Positions 4,112 through 58,129 of a stretch of 64,000 nt of DNA are shown here, piece after piece; the stretch's first letter is position 1, and each line of letters begins with the position of its first letter. The position numbers and the translations under genes were made by a program. Location of the stretch: the NCBI GenBank assembly GCA_951406725.2, contig OX597823.1, positions 39,556,001 to 39,620,000 on the forward strand. The letters run 5' to 3'. The stretch comes from Octopus vulgaris (lineage: Eukaryota). The notes below the pieces were generated by a model, which worked only from the letters and a program-made list of their open reading frames with translations, did not search any database and was not told where the DNA came from.

Positions 4112-4193
<82 letters not shown>

Positions 4194-4225
4194 TTTATTT
4201 TAAGCAGCAGAAAATTCAACAAAAT

Positions 4226-4263
4226 CTGTTACTCTGAGTTTCTCGTTGCCGTTCATCAGACAG
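4226..4263 (-). ncRNA. Type I hammerhead ribozyme motif (inverted copy)
   Basis: Minus strand: ctgt CTGATGA a-cg-gcaa-cg-a GAA actc-a-gagt A acag. Confidence 0.7.
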
Positions 4264-5225
4264 TTTTTGCTAGAATGGAACCGATATATCAATTCAATCT
4301 AGACTCTTACAAACGCTACACCTTTAAAAAGAAATGGACTTGTTTGATTGGCCCTTTAGAAAAAAACGGTCAATCTTCGAGCGATAAACAAAAAGGTCAA
4401 AAATATATGTATATATATATATAAAAAAAAACTTATAAAAAATTATAAAATCCGAGGAAAAAACCTTACATTGAATAAAATACATATTGACGTTAATGAA
4501 GAAAGTATAAATTAATTCATAGGAATTAAACCTGTTATAAATATTACACTGCAATACATATTTTTATTAAAATATGCATATATATATCAACATACACAAA
4601 AGGATGCGCGCAAACGCCATACATATACAGACGTATGAATATAAATCTAAATATACACATAAATGCATGTGTACATATATTCACGCAAACCATCTCGCAC
4701 GCAAGTTAAAAATCATGTATGTAGCGATTCTCATATACTGAGTAAGGGGGGGGGCGAAAGAAAGGAAGAGAGAGAAAAAGGAACGAAGGAGGGGTGGGGA
4801 AAAAAACGAAATAAGAAAAAATTATGTATACAAGCTGTGTAACGGCATTATTGGCATATATGGAGACAAGTATACAAACACAATTTCGAATGGATACATA
4901 CACATACAGTCGTGTATATGTGTGCTTAAGCACAAACATACTCTCACTTACACATACACAGATACGCATGCTTACAAATACATATCCTCGGCTATACACA
5001 TACTTACATCAACATTCTAATTTTGACAACATTGCTTTTTTTAAAAAAACATTGCTTTTTTTAAAAAGAATGGGCGCATTAATAAAAATATATACGAAAG
5101 ACATATAAAATAAAATATAACACCTTTTTCTGAAGGGCCAATCAAACAAGTCCATTTCTTTTTAAAGGTGTAGCGTTTGTAAGAGTCTAGATTGAATTGA
5201 TATATCGGTTCCATTCTAGCAAAAG

Positions 5226-5263
5226 CTGTCTGATGAACGGCAACGAGAAACTCAGAGTAACAG
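5226..5263 (+). ncRNA. Type I hammerhead ribozyme motif
   Basis: Stem I ctgt/acag, extendable by tagcaaaa/ttttgttg. CTGATGA at 5230-5236, minimal stem II cg/cg with GCAA loop, GAA, stem III ACTC-A-GAGT, GUA cleavage triplet ending at 5259. Confidence 0.7.
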
Positions 5264-5365
5264 ATTTTGTTGAATTTTCTGCTGCTTAAAATAAAGCATA
5301 TTACTCTACCACTGGTATTTGAGTACTCTTTTTTTCACCTTGTTTCACATTTATGTGTTTACTCC

Positions 5366-7867: not shown

Positions 7868-8815
7868 ACAGAGTGCGATAGGTAAATTGTCACCATTTTA
7901 TAGTTTTAATTTCGTGCATGTGCATTATTTTTTTATTCTTGATTTTGTCGACTAAACAGCATAGTAGGGTCAGTTGAGCACCGTCTGTGAGAAAAACAGC
8001 ACCATGACGCAATTCACTCTGTCAGAAGTTTGGAATCGACATGCTGTACTGCTTAGCATTCACGCCAGAAGCTCCAATGCGAACATTTCAAAGTGTTTGG
8101 GTATCAATCTGAAGACAGTGCAAAGGATTCGGAAACAGTTGGATGAGTCTAATGGTGATTATGAAGGTACGGCAGCTCGGAAAACTCAATCTGATCGTTC
8201 TGATAAGAAAAGAACTCCTAAATTTGTTGGTGAGATCCAGGTCATGATTCACAACGATCCCTCCAAGTCAATCAAGTCCATCTCCAGGGAGTGCATGAAG
8301 ACATTTGGTATTCCTCATACAAGATGAGAAAGGGCCAATTTTTATCCCAAGCCATCAAGGACAAGAGAATAGACCGCATTACGAAGCTTTGGAACAAACT
8401 CAAGCATCCCCTCCAATCGAACGTTATTTAGTTTTTCTCAGACGAGAAAAATTTCTGCTAGGATCAGATGATGAACACACAGAACAACCGCTGACTTGCC
8501 GTGTCCCCAAAACATGTACTGAGAGTAATAAAAATCGAACATCCAGTCAACACCATGGTGTTTGGAGTGATCACTAGTGATGGCGACGTTATGCCTCCAA
8601 TTCTCTTCCACACGGAGGCCGATATCAAGTATCTGGAGGATGTAGTGCTGCCATGGGTCAAGAGGGTAGCTGCTGGAAGACCCTATGTCTAGAAACAGGA
8701 CTCTGCACCATGTCACACAAGCAGAAGTACCCGTCATGGCTGTCAGACAATTTCTGCCATCACATCACCCCTAACACCCGACCCCCCAACTCCCCAGGCT
8801 GAAAACCCTTGATTA
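7868..8815 (+). mobile_element. Tc1/mariner superfamily transposon relic, maT (DD37D)-like, 3' truncated
   Basis: HTH-like ORF 7974..8327, then FSDEKNF, VFGVITSDGDVMPP, WVKRVAAGRPYV-x-KQDSAPCH and a decayed SPDxNPLD at about 8790-8815. Starts TA-CAGAGTG. Confidence 0.8.
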
Positions 8816-10484: not shown

Positions 10485-10562
<78 letters not shown>

Positions 10563-10584
10563 GTACGTGCATCCATATATAAAT

Positions 10585-10845
10585 ATAATTGTTAAACAGG
10601 ATATCAAACATTAAGGCAAGGCAAATATATCAAGTCATATACAATATATTTTAGGAAGGAATTCAAAATCTTACAGCTATTTCTAGGATATCGCCGAGTA
10701 TGGGATATTCCATCATCAGAGACAAATTGGGGAAAGATATGGAAAATGAGAATGGTTTATATCAATAAGATGACAACATAGAGAAAGGGAGTAAAAGAAT
10801 AAGTAGATGGAAAGAGAGAAAGAGTAAACCCCCATACTTTGTTCA
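10585..10845 (-). mobile_element. Short microsatellite-flanked element carrying a hammerhead ribozyme
   Basis: About 260 bp of non-microsatellite sequence between (TA)n and (TACA)n, containing the motif at 10668-10723. Confidence 0.55.
10668..10723 (-). ncRNA. Type I hammerhead ribozyme motif
   Basis: Minus strand: gtct CTGATGA tggaatatc-ccatactcggc-gatatccta GAA ATAGCTGT A agat. Stem II is 9 bp with one mismatch. Confidence 0.75.
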
Positions 10846-10914: not shown

Positions 10915-11180
10915 GTGTTTGTGACTTTACCATCGCTTGACAACTGATTTTGGTGTGTTTACGTTCCCGTAACTTAGCATTTCGGCTATGAATAATATAG
11001 TAAGAATTTACAAAAAAAACCCCCCAAAAAAACGAAGACGGGTGTGTAAATAACAAACAGATGTATTAGTTTATACTAGGCTTATAAAGAATAAGTCCTG
11101 GGGTCGATTTGTTCGACTAAGTGCTGTGCTCCAGCATGGCTGCAGATAAATGACTGAAACAAATAAAAGAATAAAAGAAT
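10915..11180 (+). mobile_element. SINE family C, 3' half, interrupted at 10996-11073
   Basis: catcgcttgacaac...ctccagcatggctgcag..gactgaaac; the insert splits gaataa|tactaggc. Confidence 0.8.
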
Positions 11181-12688: not shown

Positions 12689-15490
12689 GCTAAAAAAGTA
12701 CTAAGAAATATTAATAATGAAATTAGGGAAATTACTGGGCTTCAACAATGGAATAACAGTTTTACTGTATTAGTTTGGTTTAAGAATATCGGGAATAAGA
12801 ATAAGGCTAAATTAATCCACTTTGATATTATAGACGTTTATCCCTCTGTATCTAGATCGCTGCTTGATAAAGCTATTGAATTTGCTAAATTATATGTTGA
12901 TATTGACCCTATAAACCTAGATTTTATCAGGCATGCGAGGAAAACACTATTGTTTAGTAAAGGATTAGCATGGGTAAAAAAGTCGCATAGTGACAAACTA
13001 AATGATGTATCTATGGGGTCATATGATAGTGCTGATGTCTTTGATCTTGTGGGTTTATTTATATTAAACACATTGAGATATAGATACCCGGCTCGCTCAT
13101 GGCAATGGCCTATACCGTGATGACGGTTTAGGTATTTCTCTTGATAGAGTTAGGAAGCAACTACTTTCTATCCTCAATCAAACTACAGTGGCTACTAATC
13201 TCTGTATTGTTGATTATTTAGATGTTTCCCTAAATTTAAACTCGTACGAGGGGCGTTCAATAAGTAATGCCCCTGACCCACTTCCCATAGCAGTAGAGCA
13301 ACGAAACTTGGCACAGTTATTAGTCTTTTTCTACATAGGAACCACCCAGAGTTACGCATTTCTCCCATCGTTTGATGCGGCTCTGGAGACCGTTTTTGTA
13401 GAAGAACCCAGCTTGGTCCTCCAACCTCAACGTGACTTCAGAAATCAAGGCTGCATCATCTGGGAAATGCTTTCCTTTCAAAAACAACTTCATGATTGGG
13501 AAGAGGTGAAAATCAGAGGGTACAAGGTCAGGAAAGTAGGGGGGATGGGGAGGAGTTCATAGCCATACGCCTGTGCTTCTGATCTGGCGACAAGCGAGTT
13601 GTGGACCGGAGAGTTGTCCTGCAGGAGGAGGATGCCTTTGTTGATCTTGCCCCGCCTCTTAATTTTGATAACTTCTCTTAATTTCCTCAAAAGTGAAGCA
13701 TAATAGGCTCCTGCAATTGTGGTACCCTTTGCCAGGAAATCTGTCATCACTACTCCGTCCTGGTCCCAGAAGACTGTGAGCATGACCTTGCCAGCGGAGG
13801 GCTGCACCCTTGCCTTCTTTGGAGGGGGTTAGTCACGGTGCTTCCACTGCATTGACTGGACTTTGGTCTCTGGATCATCGTGATGGACCCAGGTTTCATC
13901 CTGTGTAATCAGTCTTTTGAAAAATTTTGACTCATCTTCTTGGCACATCTCCAAATTCACCCTCGAGCACTCGACGCGTTCTTGCTTCTAGAAAGGCGTG
14001 AGCAACCTGGAAATCCATCTGGCAGACACCTTTTGCATATGCAAATGGTCATGAATGATAGTTTCCACAGACCCGGTACTAATCTTGACCTCATGGGCTA
14101 TTTGGCGAATAATTATGCGTCGATCTTCCAAAATGGCAGCCTCAACTTGACGGACAGATGCCTCATCAATGGCAGAAGGGGGCGACCAGATCTGGGAGCT
14201 GTTTCCACAGAGTTCCGACCATGTTTGAATTCACGATGCCAGCGTTTTACAAGGTCATATGATGGGGCATCATCACCATAAGTTACTTTCATTTCATCAA
14301 AAGTCTCCCGTGGTGTGCGTCCTTTCAAATACAAAAACTGGATCACTGCTCGACACTCAACAGGCTCCATTTCACACTTGACTCGGTTCAAACACCTGTA
14401 AATCAGAAACCACAATTAATTCAGAGCTGTAATTTGCTACTTACTCTATAGAGATATAAATAATTGCACATGCAAAATTTCAGCTAGATCAAACAACTGC
14501 AAGTGGGTCAGAGGCATTACTTATTGAACGTCCCTCGTATAAACCTTTCCATAAACCCAATGAGAAACTCGCACATATACATAAACAGACGCGTCACTCT
14601 CCTGTAATATTTAAAAACCCGGTAGTTATTATTAGTGACAGGGTGTCTAATCTCTCTTCTTCCAAAGAAATTTTCGAGTAAGTTGCCCCGTATTATAACA
14701 AGGCCCTAGCCAATAGTGACTTCAAAGATAAATTAATATATAGTCCCTCTAATAATAAGCAAAATATTAATAATAGATCTAGTGGCATCAAAGATAAAGT
14801 AGTACTTAACCACTCTAGTATTAATCAGGATAATAAGAAACCTAAACATAGGCCAAGGAAAATTATTTTCTTCGCCCCTCCCTTAATATAAAATCTAAAA
14901 GATTCCTGTTACTCTTAGACAAACACTTTCCAGCTACTCACATGTACAGAAAAATATTCAATAGGCGTTCTGTGAAATTATCATATAACTGCTGCCCCAA
15001 TATGAAGAGTATTATTACACGTGGTCAACACCAAGAATCTGAATCCAGCTGCAACTGTCGCGACCCAGGGTCCTGTGAACTTGACCAACGATATAAACTA
15101 AATCTATCATATATGAGGCAGAAATTACTGTAACCCTAAATAATAATACAACTGATAAGAAGAACTATATTGGATTATGGGAAGGTGAATTTTAAAATCG
15201 CTATGTCAATCACATAGCCTCCTTCCGACATAGGGACAAAAGTAAAGCTTACTACGTTGGTTACCTACGTGTGGACTTTGAAAGATAACGAAAGACAGCA
15301 TGTAATTAAATGGAAAGTAATTGAGAAAGCCACACCTTATGTGAATGGATCGAATAAATGTAGACTTTGTTTGGCTGAACGAGCGCAGATCCTGTTCAGA
15401 TCTATGATTCTTAAGCCTCTTAAACTCCAGGTCAGAAATTTTCAGTGGTTGCATGCATATGTATAAATATATTTTGGAGAATTGGAAAAC
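12689..15490 (+). mobile_element. Penelope-like retroelement (RT plus C-terminal GIY-YIG endonuclease, Naiad-like), 5' truncated and split by a mariner
   Basis: FDIIDVYPSV, DVSMGSYDSADVFDLVGL, GLYRDDGL, VDYLDVSLNL|YKPFHKPN, KIFNRRSVKLSYNCCPNM, CNCRDPGSC, NYIGLWEGEF-x-NRYVNH, KWKVIEKATPYVNGSNKCRLCLAE. Several frameshifts. The Naiad assignment is inference. Confidence 0.9.
13247..14537 (-). mobile_element. Full-length (1291 bp) mariner DD34D transposon, irritans-like; transposase pseudogene at about 13320-14370
   Basis: TIRs cgaggggcgttcaataagtaatgcc / ggcattacttattgaacgtccctcg with TA duplication at 13245 and 14538. Motifs WISRLL, TQDETWVHH, KVMLTVFWD, LQDNSPVH, PDLVPSDFHLF, with stops and frameshifts. 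Confidence 0.95.
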
Positions 15491-22568: not shown

Positions 22569-22678
<110 letters not shown>

Positions 22679-22679
22679 T

Positions 22680-22899
22680 TATTACCCACAAGGGGCTAAA
22701 CACAGAGGGGACAAACAAGGACAGACAAAGGGATTAAGTCGATTACATCGACCCCAGTGCGTAACTGGTACTTAATTTATCGACCCCGAAAGGATGAAAG
22801 GCAAAGTCGACCTCGGCGGAATTTGAACTCGGAACGCAACGACAGACGAAATACGGCTACGAATTTCGCCCGGCGTGCTAACGTTTCTGCCAGCTCGTC
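22680..22899 (-). mobile_element. SINE family B
   Basis: Near-identical to 15758. Confidence 0.9.
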
Positions 22900-23317
22900 G
22901 TATGTATGTATGTATGTATGTATGTATGTATGTATGTATGTATGTATGTATGTATGTATGGGATTTTTTTCATGTGACATTACTCCTATGACTTTTCTGT
23001 ATTTCAATGGGTGCTATTAAAGGTTTTTTTTAATGATTGTGTCGTAGCTCTACAAGGTTGTAATTATAAACATTTTTATTCCATATTAAAATCCTAAATT
23101 AGACACGAGTTGAAAAAGTAAGTCGTGAAAATCGAGTTAAAAAAAAAAACAACCTTGAACAAACAAAATATGTAACTATCAAACCGGTTACATTTAAAAT
23201 CGGTAAATAACAAGTTTGCTTATAAGTCATCATTAACCGGAAATGATCCATATGTTAACTGCCTTTCTTTTCTGTCACTAAAAGGGAGCTGATTCGAATA
23301 TAGAATGATACCGATCA

Positions 23318-39519: not shown

Positions 39520-40563
39520 TTGGGTTGGCAACTAAGTCCCCGCCGTTTTTTTTTTTAATTTGGAATTAATTGCGTTTTTAAACTTTGGAATTTATTTTTT
39601 TCGAGAATTCTATTTTTGAATCATTTTGGAATCTATTTTGCTTTTTTTCTCTAGTTAATTTTAGTTAATTTTTGTTTATTAAAATGGAATGTCAAGTTAA
39701 AAAAATCGAGCATTTTCGACACCTTCTTTTTGCTTTTAATCAAGATTCTAAGGCCGCAAAAGCTGCTCACGACATTTGTGATGTGTATGGAGAGGGTGCA
39801 ATAGCTGAAAGAACCGCTCGTGATTGGTATGCCAAGTTCAAAACTGGAAATTTTGCCCTCGAAGACGCACCTCATTCTGGCTGTCCAGTTGAGTTCGATA
39901 AAGAGCGATTAAACCAGCTTTTGCACGAAAATTCTTGTCAAACGACGAAGAAACTGGCAGAGAAAATGGAATGCTCCCACACTGCTATAGAGAAGTATCT
40001 TCACTTGATGGGAAAGGTTCAGAAGTATGGAACATGGGTTCCGCATACTTTAAGTGACAACAACAAAAATCAACAAGCCACAATCTCCGCTGGTTTGCTT
40101 GCTCGTCAACGGTCAACGCGGAACTCTATGTTCAATAGATGGAACGACTCAACACGGCTATTCCAGAGAAAAGACCTCATAGGCAGCATGGAGTTCTTCT
40201 GCTACACGACAACGCCCGCCATCATATCACCAATATGACCAAGGAAGCCATTCAAACGCATGGCTGGGAAGTGCTGCCACACCCACCGTACTCTCCTGAT
40301 TTGGCACCAACTGATTTCCACCTCTTTCTATCTCTTTCAAATGCTATGCGCGGAGTTTTCGTTCAATACTAATGCAGAATTGAGAGCTTGGTTGGATCAA
40401 TTTTTCGAGTCGAAATCAGATGATTTCTATCAACAAGGTATTGAAAATCTTACTGAACGTTGGGAAGAAGTTGTAAACAACAAGGATGAATACATTATTG
40501 ATTAATTAGTTGTTAGTTTTTATTAAATCTTTTAAAAAATTTAAATAAAAAAAAAAAACGGCA
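39520..40563 (+). mobile_element. Mariner transposon with an internal deletion; transposase pseudogene at 39684-40505
   Basis: TA-ttgggttggcaactaagt TIR; MECQVKKIEHFRHLL, WVPHTL, LLHDNARHH, HPPYSPDLAPTDFHLF. The first catalytic Asp region is missing. Confidence 0.92.
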
Positions 40564-44509: not shown

Positions 44510-46419
44510 TGTTTAACTCTTCAAATCCTGAAAACTGACTGCAGTCATCCATAGCCCCAGAACCAGAAAAATCATCAGGGTCATCAATACTGTTCGAAGT
44601 GTCACAATCTTCAAACAGAACGTCATCTTCTGTGCCATCTATTGCATTACTGATGCCACATTTTTAAAAAGGTTTTACTACTACTTCAGTTTTCACAGCG
44701 TTCCATGATCTCAAGACCCACTCGCACACTCGCACACCTGAGCAATTATTAGCCTTTTCAAACGACCTGTTGGTGTTAGGTCATGGTCCTTGGCTCTCAT
44801 CCCCTGATTCCACTCGTCTTTCATAACTGCCTTAAAAAGCTTGTTGATTGATACGTCCAGTGGTTGTAATTGGCTTGTTAAACCACCAAGGATCACTGCC
44901 ACTTTCGTTTTCATTTTCTGCACCCTTTCTTTAATAACCATTGTTTTGTGGGCACGAAACTGGTCCCACACAAGAAGGGATGGTTTTTTTAAGGAGGCCA
45001 CCAGAACGCCTTGTAGAGATCTTATCTAGCCATAGCTTCATTCCTTCCTCATCTATCCACTCCTTTAGGTGGAGGTGAACAAAAGTTCCACGTGGAATTT
45101 TCTCTTTTGGTAAAGTTTTTCTTTTGAAAATAAGCAACGGTGGCAGTTTTGTTCCATCAGTGCAACACGATAGTACTGCAGTATAATGGGTTTTCTCATG
45201 TCCAGATGTCTTTACACTTACGGTTTTGGACACTTTAACATCCACTGTTCTAGTTGATACCACATCACACGTTAGTGACACCCCATCCATGTTTCCGATC
45301 TGATCCAGTTCGTAGTCAGTCTCTTTTCTTGCACTGATTATGAACCTGTGAAATTAGATTATTTTGTTATCATAATCTTCAGGCATATTTTGTGCCATTC
45401 TTGGTTCTATTCTCCTTGCTAGTCCGTGCCTCTTCATAAATCTGTAACACCAGCTTGATGTGCCACGAAAATCATCCAGACCTCGTGCTGCTGCCCTCAG
45501 TTTTGATTCATTAATAATAATTTTTATTGATACTGCAAGGCCCGAATTTCCCTCTGCAACTATCCACTCCTTCATCTCTTGCTCCAGTTCTGACCACCTA
45601 GCTGCAGGTTACGTTTAAGTCTTGATGTAGACTTCAACAAATCCTCAACAGTAGCGGATCATTTTTGAAGTTGGCGGTGCTCCAAATGCCACCCTGCAGC
45701 TCTGTTGCCATATTTATTCACTTGTAGCTTGTAACCGATTGTGTAAGAGTATCTTCTGCTTGAGATTACCATAATAAGGTTTGTGCTAAAAATTTTAAAG
45801 CTTCTGAAGTTACGGATCACTCCTAACGTCAGCAGGCCCAGGTTTGAACTGGTTTAAGTCCATGGCTTTCAGAGATCAAGGAGGAAGCTATGTTGCTGTC
45901 TGAACACAACGCATTTCATCACAGAGAGTAAGTGATGACTGAACGCAACATGTTTCATGTCAGAAAGTGAATAAGTGATTACGATAGTATTGTTATTAAT
46001 ATTTGCTTATAAATCCTTTTAACATACCACAGTTTTACTTCTTTCCTCATTTAATAATGTTCCCTTAAAGTCAGGTTGTTTGAAGAGAGTAAAAAAATAC
46101 CAGCAATATAGACACACAGGTAAAAATATCACCCGTCAGTTGCCTCGTCTAACATACACTGCCTATATGGGAATGAATTCTTGTGATTTCAAAATTTTTT
46201 ATGATATTATACTTTGGTTTATTTACTACTTTAACAAAGTATAACTTATACACTTCACTGAGCGGTCATATATAGGGGTTCAGATTTCTGTCTAGCATAG
46301 ATAATTTTTCTCTGGGGATATGCCTGTGAAAACTGAAACCTTCGGCCTCCAGGACGTATGGTAGATTTTCGAGATTAATTTTAGGAAAAAAGGAGCATCT
46401 TCAACGCTAGGAAATACGG
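44510..46419 (-). mobile_element. pogo-superfamily transposon relic (POGK-like transposase, CENP-B HTH plus DDE_1); pseudogene at about 44510-45772
   Basis: WCYRFMKRHGL, IGNMD, KTSGHEKTHYTAVLSCCTDGTKLPPLLIFKRK, LLVWDQFRAH, GGLTSQLQPLDVSINK, KCGISNAIDGTEDD. Frameshifted. TIR-like ccgtatttcc at 46410-46419 on the minus strand. Confidence 0.9.
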
Positions 46420-48855: not shown

Positions 48856-49490
48856 ACAATACGATAATAAATGCATAAAAGGGGTGCCCTCCCCATGATA
48901 GTGTACCTTTGTACACAATACAATTGAACAATCGAAAATGTAGGTTAAACAAACAATACAGAACGGAAGTATAATTGTCCCACTTAGACCAAATGCCTTA
49001 TTGTTATTCACAGAAATCAAAGAATAGGAAGCAGTGACAGAGAGATAGAAAGAGAGAGAGAGAGGGGGAAGGGAGAGAAAGGGAGAAAGAGAATGAATGA
49101 AAGAGAGAACATGTGGTGGACGTATATAAAATAAAATTGAGCTAAGGGAAATAACTCAAATATATCAATGACATAGATTGAGGCAAATCATTTATGAGTA
49201 GCAACAAAAAAAAAAATATGAGATCTTTGTCTTTGGTTGGGACAAAGACAGCAAAATTCATTAAGTGTTCATAGAGAAAATGGTGAAAACATTTCAGTTA
49301 GCCAAGAATTTATAGACGCAAGCGAGGTTATAGGCGTAGGCGTGACTGTGTCGTAAAAAGTTTGTTTCCCAACCACATAGTTCCGGGTTCAGTCCCACTG
49401 CGTGGCACCTTGGGTAAGTGTCTTCTGCTATAACTTCGAACTGACCAAAACCCTGTGAATGTATTTGGTAGAAACTGAAAGAAGCCCGTC

Positions 49491-49524
<34 letters not shown>

Positions 49525-49526
<2 letters not shown>

Positions 49527-49775
49527 AAATGGATAAATGAATTATCTTGTTACGGATTATTCAAAATTTAACCGATATCTGGGTAGCAAAAATCACAACA
49601 GAATTGCTTGCTGCGTATTTGTTTGGAGATTTAAATTCCTGGATTTTCCTGAAGAGAAAGCTGCAAAATGGTCTCCTTATTCTATCCGAATTTGGAAATT
49701 TGCGGCCTTTGAAACATGTGTAGAAAATAATAAAAGGAATTCTGTAGAATCTTCGTTCAGCTCCATTTCTTCCCT

Positions 49776-49780
<5 letters not shown>
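49525..49780 (+). mobile_element. Short (TA)n-flanked element carrying a hammerhead ribozyme
   Basis: Non-SINE insert between two (TA)n runs inside SINE C. Confidence 0.7.
49643..49728 (+). ncRNA. Type I hammerhead ribozyme motif with long stem II
   Basis: attttc CTGAAGA gaaagctgcaaa...tttgcggccttt GAA ACATGTGT A gaaaat. Perfect 6-bp stem I, extended by attcct/aggaat; GUA site ending at 49722. Confidence 0.8.
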
Positions 49781-49839
<59 letters not shown>

Positions 49840-49855
49840 AGTATATAAGAGTAAA

Positions 49856-49904
<49 letters not shown>

Positions 49905-50662
49905 AACGTGTATATGTCTTGTCCCTCACCGCTGCCTGACAACCGGTGTTGGTGTGTTTATGTCCCTGTAACTTAGCAGTTCAACAAAAGTGACTGAGAG
50001 AATAAGTACCAGGCTTTGCAAAAAATAATAAGTTGATTCGATTAAAATTCTTCAAGGTCGGTGCCCCAGCATGGCCGCTGTCTAATTACTGAAACAGGAA
50101 AAAGATTATCATGTTTAATTTGATACATATTTGCTGAGATGGTGACAACAAAAGATATGTTTTGGCATCTCTGAATCTCGTAACGGAAGCATAGACAACG
50201 TAAACTCCCCTACTTAATAAAGACAAGCTTTCTTGCATATAGAAAATGGGCTGTGAATAAGTTTTCGCGAGAGATTAATTCTATATCGAATAAATGAACC
50301 CATCAAATACATATGAAACATGTGTGTGAATTATTCTGTGTTGGCACTTCAACTTCTTGATGGTATATCAGGGGCATCGCTTTACATGTGGGGTTCCTTA
50401 GGTGTGCTTTTAAAGATGACTGTTAAGTTTATGCTTTCTTTCTTTGGCCTAATTCTGAATTTATAATAAACAAAACTTACAATGAATTGACATAATACAG
50501 ACCTGAATTAGTTCTGGAATGGAGATGGCAATGATGAGGTCGCGAATAGTGACGAAAGGACTTGGACAACAATTGATTGAACAATTAAGCAAACTATCGA
50601 TTAGTTAATTGGTTAAATGGTTAACTAATTAACAAATAAAAGATGAATAAGTTTTAAAAAGT

Positions 50663-55045: not shown

Positions 55046-55048
<3 letters not shown>

Positions 55049-55298
55049 CGGAGATGTACTTGCATAACAAGTGTTTTGATCTGAGATCGTATGCTGAAAC
55101 GAAAATAATTGCAGCGTGGCAGGTGTTTGTAAGCCATTTAAGAAACACACAAAAGCCGTTCGATTCACTTCAACATTTAAGTTTAATTTGTCAAAATATT
55201 TTCGTCGCTTTAAGACCGCGACCTGTTCACTGACAAAAATCCGTGCAGCATCTGTGTGTTTCTTAAATGGCTTACAAACACCTTCCACGCTGCAATTG
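55046..55298 (-). mobile_element. Short (TA)n-flanked ribozyme element with a 45-bp inverted duplication (55107-55151 / 55253-55297)
   Basis: aattgcagcgtggcaggtgtttgtaagccatttaagaaacacaca and its reverse complement, with one mismatch. Confidence 0.75.
55187..55237 (-). ncRNA. Type I hammerhead ribozyme motif, G3-C8 variant
   Basis: Minus strand: tttgtca GTGAACA g gtcgc-ggtcttaaa-gcgac GAA AATATT T tgacaaa. 7-bp stem I, 5-bp stem II, palindromic stem III. Confidence 0.75.
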
Positions 55299-55299
55299 T

Positions 55300-55375
<76 letters not shown>

Positions 55376-56810: not shown

Positions 56811-58129
56811 CGAGGAGAAGTAAAAATTATCCACATTTTTACCATAACATCCGCACTTTCACCAAACCTTTATTATTGTCCCATTGCCTTCTGTGCATGC
56901 GTTCTTATAGTTGGTATTATTGTGGTCACGTGATCGAAGTTTGAGCCCGATCGTGCTTTTTTTTCTTTCTGGTTTTTATAAGCATGGCCGCTCCACTAGC
57001 AATATGCACCAAAGAAGAACAAAGAGCAGTGATCAGATTTCTCTTGTCGGTAGGTGTGTCAGGTGCTGAAATTAATCGGAGGCTTTTAGAACAATACGGG
57101 CACAATGCACTACCGCGTAGAAGTGTGTATGAGTAGATCGAGAAGTTTAAAAGTGGCCGGACAAGCCTGACACATGGAGAGGGAGCAAGACACACGTCAA
57201 TTTCCAGCACTGGCCAGAAGATTCAGCAAGCTCGAGAGATGGTAATGGTAAACCGGCGAGTTATCATCGTAGAGGTAGCTCATTCTCTGCAGATTTGTCA
57301 TGGTTCTGCCTATCAAATCATCCACATTGAGCTCGTCTTCCATAAAGTCTGTGCAAGATGGGTGCCAAGAGAGCTTACTGTAGAGCACACACGCAAACGT
57401 CATAAGATCTGCCCACGTTTACTCGATCGCTGCAACAATGAGGGCGAGAAATTTTTGAGCAGAATAGTCACACATGCTACGTGGGTTCATCATTATGAGG
57501 CAAAATCCAAAAGACAGAGTATGGAGTGGAAACATTCTGGCTCACCAGCGCCGAACAAATTTAAGACTCATTCCTCCTCGGGAAAGGTGGTGCTAACCCT
57601 GTTTTGGGACTCAAAAGGACCTGTACTGGAAGACTACCTTGGAAAATGGGTGTACGATTAACAGTGCAAGATACAGTGCTTTGCTGGCCAACAAACTGAA
57701 TCTAGCAATTCGCACCAAACGCCGAAACCTATTGTCGAAGAAAGTTTTGTTGTTGCATAACAATGCACGCCCACAGACGGCCGCCCAAACCGTTGAAACC
57801 ATAAACCAATTGGGTTTTAAGATGCTGGAAGACCCTGTTTACAGCCCAGATCTCGACCCTTCCGACTATCATATCTTTGGATCCATCAAAGATGGTTTAC
57901 GAGATCGTCGATTTCCTACGGATGAAGATGTGAAGGAAACGGTGCATAAATGGTTGCACGCCCAACAGAAAACTTTCTTCTTGGAGGGAATACTCAAGCT
58001 TGTGGACCGCTGGACCAAGTACATCGAAAAGGAATGAGAGATATAGAAAGATGATGTACTTGTTTATCCTCCGCTTTTTGTAAATACATTGAAAAAGCAA
58101 GCGTGCGTATAATTTTTGACTCTCCCTCG
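56811..58129 (+). mobile_element. Full-length (1319 bp) mariner, irritans-like; transposase pseudogene at 56984-58037
   Basis: TA-flanked TIRs cgaggagaagtaaaaattat / ataatttttgactctccctcg; EEQRAVIRFL, ARWVPREL, KVVLTLFWD, LLHNNARP, YSPDLDPSDYHIF. It has a stop, frameshifts and two lost catalytic Asp residues. Confidence 0.95.

Follow-up and report, generated by a model that had tools for sequence, protein, structure and literature searches.

Penelope-like elements (PLEs) of the Hydra clade carry hammerhead ribozymes and, in the accessible parts of Files S1 and S2 of PMC8557442, have (TA)n as the target in 26 of 27 families, an octopus member included. In Hydra-1_Obim the hammerhead lies about 100 nt from the 3' end and combines the core CUGAAGA plus an extra G with an A-U first pair, according to the portion consulted of Craig et al. 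2021 (PMC8557442). The same portion describes inverted pairs, optional tails and, for Naiad and (citing Arkhipova 2006) Neptune elements, a bias towards microsatellites; the accessible sections of a paper on killifish Neptune (PMC12602865) contain nothing on targets. As to structure, canonical metazoan type I hammerheads have a 6-bp helix I and a 4-bp helix II, whereas in those of PLEs helix II is longer, one additional base follows the core, a G10.1-C11.1 pair is present, helix III is palindromic and cleavage is dimer-dependent or assisted (sections of Cervera and De la Pena 2014, PMC4209133).

A PLE protein has been shown to nick AT-rich DNA and to begin reverse transcription beyond the ribozyme, at internal sites that are fixed; the ribozyme depends on protein, and insertion in vitro can do without it (PMC11167929, in part). 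Non-coding hammerhead repeats, frequently monomeric, have been described as PLE derivatives (parts of PMC7229834 and bioRxiv 10.64898/2026.07.22.740005), cleavage being found in only one of nine elements tested (bioRxiv 10.64898/2026.07.22.740005). In Octopus vulgaris, 190 PLE families with a coverage of 6.83% have been reported, and ribozymes go unmentioned in the accessible part of that report (PMC13282606). PLE-linked hammerheads, their non-coding derivatives and (TA)n targeting are already published, and the locus described here leaves that picture unchanged. A literature search that extended to sources other than subscription journals, Repbase and Dfam, where the family may be catalogued, found no paper on the family of this insert, an abundant hammerhead family that has apparently gone unreported so far.

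The window is the whole stretch of Octopus vulgaris DNA analysed, 64 kb in length. At 49525-49779 an insert of 255 bp (34.5% GC) interrupts a SINE within its central (TA)n, so that it stands between two perfect TA runs (49493-49524 on the 5' side, from 49780 on the 3' side), which confirms the sequence-only reading made earlier, in which a ribozyme-bearing insert of this length was placed inside the TA tract of a SINE (Table 1). Its ends are defined to within 1-2 bases, as TA masks any target duplication, and no second copy occurs within the 64-kb window. The 3' TA tract has a 21-base non-TA stretch of its own at 49837-49857.

Table 1. Features of the insert and its surroundings, in window positions
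Feature	Positions	Strand	Remarks
Head of the SINE (body and A/B-box region of tRNA type), approximate start	49331..49492	+	7 other window matches, 68-79%; alignment
(TA)n target, 5' half of the split tract	49493..49524	.	
Hammerhead-bearing mobile element, 255 bp	49525..49779	+	single in window, family abundant in public runs
Predicted 5' hairpin; stem kept, loop varies in family variants (by eye)	49538..49563	+	z -2.68; 4/200 shuffles as good
Site of an extra internal segment in many family members, at least about 60 bases, missing here	49601..49603	+	loose ends behind 49603 and before 49601, three runs
Type I hammerhead; stem I at 49643-48/49723-28, distal helix at 49634-40/49735-41	49634..49741	+	
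Catalytic core CUGAAGA	49649..49655	+	no variant at >=8% in family contigs
Long stem II plus loop, separating the core halves by 55 nt; two registers predicted at equal energy	49656..49710	+	
Second core half (GAAA), helix III (2 bp, self-complementary 8-mer) and GUA; cleavage predicted 3' of 49722	49711..49722	+	
AATAAA, 3' side of the internal loop of stem I; may be a poly(A) signal	49729..49734	+	
(TA)n target, 3' half, interrupted by 21 bases at 49837-57	49780..49904	.	
SINE tail	49905..50104	+	12 other window matches, 68-84%; alignment

The insert contains a complete type I hammerhead fold with CUGANGA, GAAA and NUH sequences, three helices and the open end in helix I. The core halves CUGAAGA (49649-55) and GAAA (49711-14) are accompanied by the cleavage triplet GUA (49720-22). 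Stem I comprises 6 bp (49643-48/49723-28) and is followed by a distal helix of 7 bp (49634-40/49735-41), whose removal has a predicted cost of 5.3 kcal/mol; helix III is a 2-bp helix with the loop AUGU. Stem II occupies 12 positions (49656-67/49699-710) around a 31-nt loop with its own hairpin. All of the elements described earlier (6-bp stem I, distal helix, 12-position stem II with a large loop, GUA site) are thus present, with one A.C mismatch in stem II. Two registers of stem II are predicted, one with a G.U first pair and the A.C mismatch (register 1, -14.7 kcal/mol) and one with an extra G, an A-U first pair and a bulged C (register 2, -14.5 kcal/mol); G10.1-C11.1 is absent from both. 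The earlier description of the ribozyme as canonical therefore holds for the core nucleotides but not for the stem II of about 12 bp, the non-G-C first pair or the 2-bp helix III: helix I fits the canonical metazoan type I, which also has a conserved contact between loops 1 and 2, whereas helix II has about 12 bp instead of 4. The minimal hammerheads of metazoan PLE pseudo-LTRs, in the accessible descriptions, share with the insert the long helix II, the palindromic helix III, an AU-rich 3' flank, mostly single occurrence and a predicted low activity as monomers. The insert differs from these in that its first pair is not G-C, its helix I has 6 bp and is supplemented by the distal helix, and its helix II exceeds the 7-8 bp described for them.

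Dinucleotide shuffles of the insert (n = 20,000) produced a loose hammerhead 5 times and never one with stems I and II of at least 6 and at least 11 bp, and 30 block-shuffled windows gave no strict hammerhead hits; the overall folding energy is ordinary (z -0.93 and -1.14). Neither at gathering score nor at E<=10 did the Rfam search recover a hammerhead, a blank that we infer to be due to the 55-nt spacer between the core halves, and such a spacer shows that standard descriptors undercount ribozymes of this kind. The predicted pairing probability of helix III is only about 0.11 in the monomer ensemble, and its 8-mer is predicted to pair with that of a second copy at -6.0 kcal/mol, or at -7.0 kcal/mol for a family variant. 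Because helix III is only 2 bp long and self-complementary, the model predicts weak cleavage of the monomer, and dimer-dependent or assisted cleavage would be expected.

Part of the insert was found in 20 of the 24 public sequencing runs listed (10 studies, 5 organism labels), and at least half of its words in only 2 of the 24 listed. Contigs aligned to it in four of the 24 runs, under three organism labels (796, 397, 611 and 21 contigs), with all 28 bins covered. Contig depth is not a copy number; nevertheless, because the summed word depth is mostly 1e4-5e5 in the three large runs beside single contigs at depth 4-100, these depths point to a family of many copies. The insert thus belongs to a repeat family, as the suggestion of a mobile element would have it, each of the three large runs holding 397-796 contigs. 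A search of metagenomes by a 16-base motif gave 118 loci, rejected as relatives, the best BLAST matches being chance matches of 19-29 bases around the motif; none of the five loci from a viral scan was related to the insert.

Among family contigs, none of the 13 core positions is variable, against 17 of the 86 ribozyme positions at 49643-49728 (variants at >=8%; P about 0.04). In stem II, 49704 G>A keeps its pair and a change at 49659 is also compatible with pairing; 49663 G>A and 49703 C>T would jointly swap a G-C pair for A-U, their frequencies differing and linkage on the same contig not being seen; 49699 T>A breaks the last pair. The palindrome of helix III becomes perfect through 49718 G>A. 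Two pairs of stem I are broken or weakened by 49726 A>T and 49727 A>G, which make up 46-60% of depth in three runs; no change of the partner bases is listed for either.

Such a family could in principle consist of animal non-LTR retrozymes, the insert being one monomer of a tandem element that cycles through self-cleaved circular RNA. The size of a few hundred bp, the low GC content, the absence of coding capacity and the type I hammerhead fit this class as far as it is described in the consulted parts of Cervera and de la Pena 2020 (PMC7229834) and Li, Clavereau and Pollet 2026, as do an optional internal indel and the proposal of a PLE as mobiliser; monomers are known, dispersed ones being common in such families (bioRxiv 10.64898/2026.07.22.740005, in part), and the dimer-type helix III suits tandems. 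Retrozymes as described there nevertheless differ from the insert, which has a long stem II, apparent microsatellite targeting, ends that look fixed rather than permuted, and a single copy without tandems in the window. No head-to-tail joint was found among the 3 joints listed from four runs, in which contigs show presence and not absence. We hold the retrozyme cycle to be a doubtful explanation.

The copy studied lacks an internal segment that contigs show in many of its relatives, and contig depth falls 15-30-fold at 49603-12. The 5' part of the insert is as deep as its 3' part, none of the loose ends listed (24 of 118) continues upstream, and on these data both ends of the insert look fixed. 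The missing segment bears on another reading, namely that the insert is a piece of an autonomous PLE, either its 5'-truncated end (a solo pseudo-LTR) or a product of internal deletion whose ORF lay in the segment now missing at 49603. A hammerhead in sense close to the 3' end, a feature of Hydra-clade elements too, and the extra sequence of many relatives would agree with this, and genomic PLE hammerheads are mostly single and derived by truncation (PMC4209133, in part). The seemingly fixed 5' end, with TA directly upstream, argues against it, and the ORF with reverse transcriptase (RT) and GIY-YIG endonuclease of an autonomous PLE was not found in the insert. What the insert does hold is an ATG-started stop-free frame of 81 codons (49537-49779), a length reached by 65 of 5000 sense-strand shuffles; no listed family variant puts a stop into it, and it has no Pfam hit, no longer relative and no credible protein relative. 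Its lone weak match, a bacterial Cna B repeat protein, was judged to be chance. Descent from an autonomous PLE in this direct sense is in our estimate unlikely.

Loose ends at 49729-49741 reveal related families with other ribozyme cores, one of them with a GUC site, that share a common sequence 3' of stem I.

Regarding the target, contigs extending past the 12-13-base TA ends number 98 of 796, 42 of 397, 58 of 611 and 4 of 21, and none fits two places. The fraction continuing into unlike sequence is 0-0.01 for each large run, compared with 0.38 for the small run, and the four 3'-end loose ends among the 24 of 118 listed show TA-like sequence or an extension of 10-11 bases. This flank evidence is partial and not a census, as the query included the TA flanks and short contigs break at repeats. 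Within the window, three of four hammerhead inserts have their 3' ends directly on (TA)>=6, against a background of 3.5% of positions, the fourth lying about 70 bases away; two of the four were found by looking between microsatellites, and in a scan of the whole window these four alone, among 26 cores, have a self-complementary helix III. The proposed preference for (TA)n thus stands as an association, in contigs running into TA and in three of four window inserts, with only partial flank evidence behind it.

The other inserts belong to two further hammerhead families at microsatellites. Element A (10562-10843, minus strand) is a hammerhead of unrelated sequence with its core at 10719, a self-complementary helix III and GUA; its 3' end is on (TA)n and its 5' end on (TATG)n, and it is antisense to a SINE tail (10935-11169). 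Element B (4193-5296), of a third family, is a head-to-head inverted pair with 98% identity over 177 bp and cores at -4259 and +5230, an arrangement typical of PLEs, with no ORF between its arms. Compared with the Hydra-2_aMil row of PMC8557442, in the part available, element B agrees almost letter for letter in stem I and helix III. Elements A and C gave no BLAST match and no meaningful alignment.

PLE-associated hammerheads and retrozymes are the known class, unnamed in the sequence-only reading, that explains ribozyme and target together. Found here were both a PLE-type hammerhead near the 3' end and, with the flank evidence being partial, insertions of the PLE type, with microsatellites as targets, pairs in inverted order, a tail that is optional and no poly(A); one contig carries two parts of the insert on opposite strands. 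Taking the evidence together, the insert is one copy of an abundant non-coding family with a type I hammerhead fold near its 3' end and, we think, probably a non-autonomous element copied by the RT and GIY-YIG endonuclease of a (TA)n-targeting PLE. The RNA of the element would be bound by the partner PLE protein, with the Hydra clade as first candidate and Neptune as second. The PLE endonuclease would nick a (TA)n tract and so prime reverse transcription, which would start at one set position, about 57 nt beyond the cut site, as PLE biology suggests (PMC11167929). A copy would land in TA whatever the surroundings, the TA being in this case, as the nesting shows, the middle of an older SINE. 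On its own the ribozyme is predicted to be a poor cleaver, with better cleavage in a dimer or under assistance by protein.

With the Hydra clade the insert shares, on the parts of the sources consulted, a sense 3' hammerhead, a self-complementary helix III of 8-9 nt, the (TA)n target and presence in octopus, and its register 2 has the CUGAAGA plus G core and A-U first pair of Hydra-1_Obim. It differs in lacking their ORF, in its fixed 5' end and in a stem II region of 55 nt compared to about 10-24, and by eye its 3' end does not match the available sequence of Hydra-1_Obim. The Naiad PLEs of cephalopods share the (TA)n target, and some are flagged with core halves 35-50 nt apart (PMC8557442, in part), but they are reportedly without canonical hammerheads and the 3' ends of Naiad_Obim and Naiad_Ovul are by eye unlike the insert; if the partner were a Naiad, the claim of hammerhead-less Naiads would need revising. 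Comparison with the published octopus Hydra and Naiad consensus ends (three ends) gave no match by eye or with six short motifs. No partner RT or GIY-YIG domain was found in the insert or in 156 open frames compared with Pfam (of 242 listed, the shortest left out), which gave only fragments of DNA transposases and a single DUF hit below threshold. By eye and after the fact, 10 bases of the 5' hairpin of the family were seen to resemble the 5' end of Hydra-1_Obim, which is a lead only.

The host SINE, presumably an octopus tRNA-derived SINE of the OR type, is present in five other window copies as head, microsatellite and tail without the insert, that is, as paralogous empty forms. It differs from the majority of these five in 41 of 317 columns (12.9%), whereas the insert has one near-private substitution in 255 bp (49683) relative to family contigs, its remaining differences being shared subfamily variants. 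Because it is nested and has far fewer private differences than the SINE copy, the insert, by this comparison, is clearly the younger of the two, as had been proposed. A search of the literature for the motif of the host SINE gave no published match.

The insert is in sense orientation to the SINE and begins 194 bases after its start, features that speak for a role of the Pol III head. On such a reading, SINE and insert would be a functional composite in which the SINE promoter drives the ribozyme RNA. A run of four Ts is a Pol III terminator, and one at 49644-47, the sole run of at least four Ts between the SINE head and the insert end, directly precedes the core. Moreover, the A-box region carries two differences from the family majority, the five paralogues do without an insert, and element A is antisense to its SINE tail. 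The idea of a role for the Pol III head is not supported by these observations, and we consider the composite scarcely credible, even with the precedent of SINE-like repeats with promoter and hammerhead in Schistosoma (PMC6765202, in part); the SINE appears to be a bystander that provided a TA tract.

Another candidate is a TA-targeting MITE whose terminal inverted repeats are imperfect and whose ribozyme is incidental. By eye, complementarity extends to about 11 of 16 terminal bases, and fragments of mariner-type transposases are common in the window. Such terminal repeats would be poor for so young a family, however, and the complementarity is also explained by RNA folding, an 8-bp helix joining the insert ends with a predicted pairing probability of 0.91-1.0. 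As the ribozyme core is also conserved across family contigs, a MITE origin is very improbable.

An AATAAA forms the 3' side of the internal loop of stem I, 3' of the cut, as noted in the sequence-only reading; its proposed service as a poly(A)-like signal meets evidence both ways. None of the three large runs lists a variant of it, and two related core variants keep it. On the other hand, 1821 of 5000 shuffles of the insert contain an AATAAA, and elements A and B have none at the equivalent place. Poly(A) processing takes place 10-30 nt downstream of its signal, and such processing would cut off the element's own 3' end, a point against the role. Judged on sequence, a function as poly(A) signal is possible. 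In the accessible part of Figure S3 of PMC4209133, AAUAAA stands just 3' of stem I in 7 of 44 rows of PLE-type hammerheads by eye, where 0.7-3.3 would be expected depending on the composition assumed. In that figure and in File S2 of PMC8557442, in the parts consulted, several PLE-type hammerheads have AAUAAA or a close variant of it immediately 3' of stem I, a recurrence on which we found no paper and which is the point of wider reach. A mammalian hammerhead is described as removing a poly(A) signal (PMC6765202, in part).

A bolder version of the PLE-passenger reading, to which we give only a slim chance, would make the family a SINE-like parasite of PLEs, high in copy number, fixed-ended and monomeric, with a long-stem-II hammerhead that escapes Rfam and published descriptors and cuts 6 nt before a real poly(A) signal. 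If true, cleavage would strip that signal from the element's own transcripts or from upstream host transcripts at very many microsatellites.

A tRNA scan gave no genes and a bacterial promoter scan was uninformative. Elsewhere in the window, fragments of mariner/Tc1 and pogo-type transposases (Pfam) lie at 7968-8324, 13493-14415, 39669-40369, 44714-45608 and 57137-58034. A second, younger-looking SINE family occurs at 22670-22900 and about 20 further places, with copies up to 92% identical that are often beside TA runs. Finally, two TA runs enclose a 257-bp insert at 55046-55302 that is likely a MITE, its terminal inverted repeats, judged by eye, being long.
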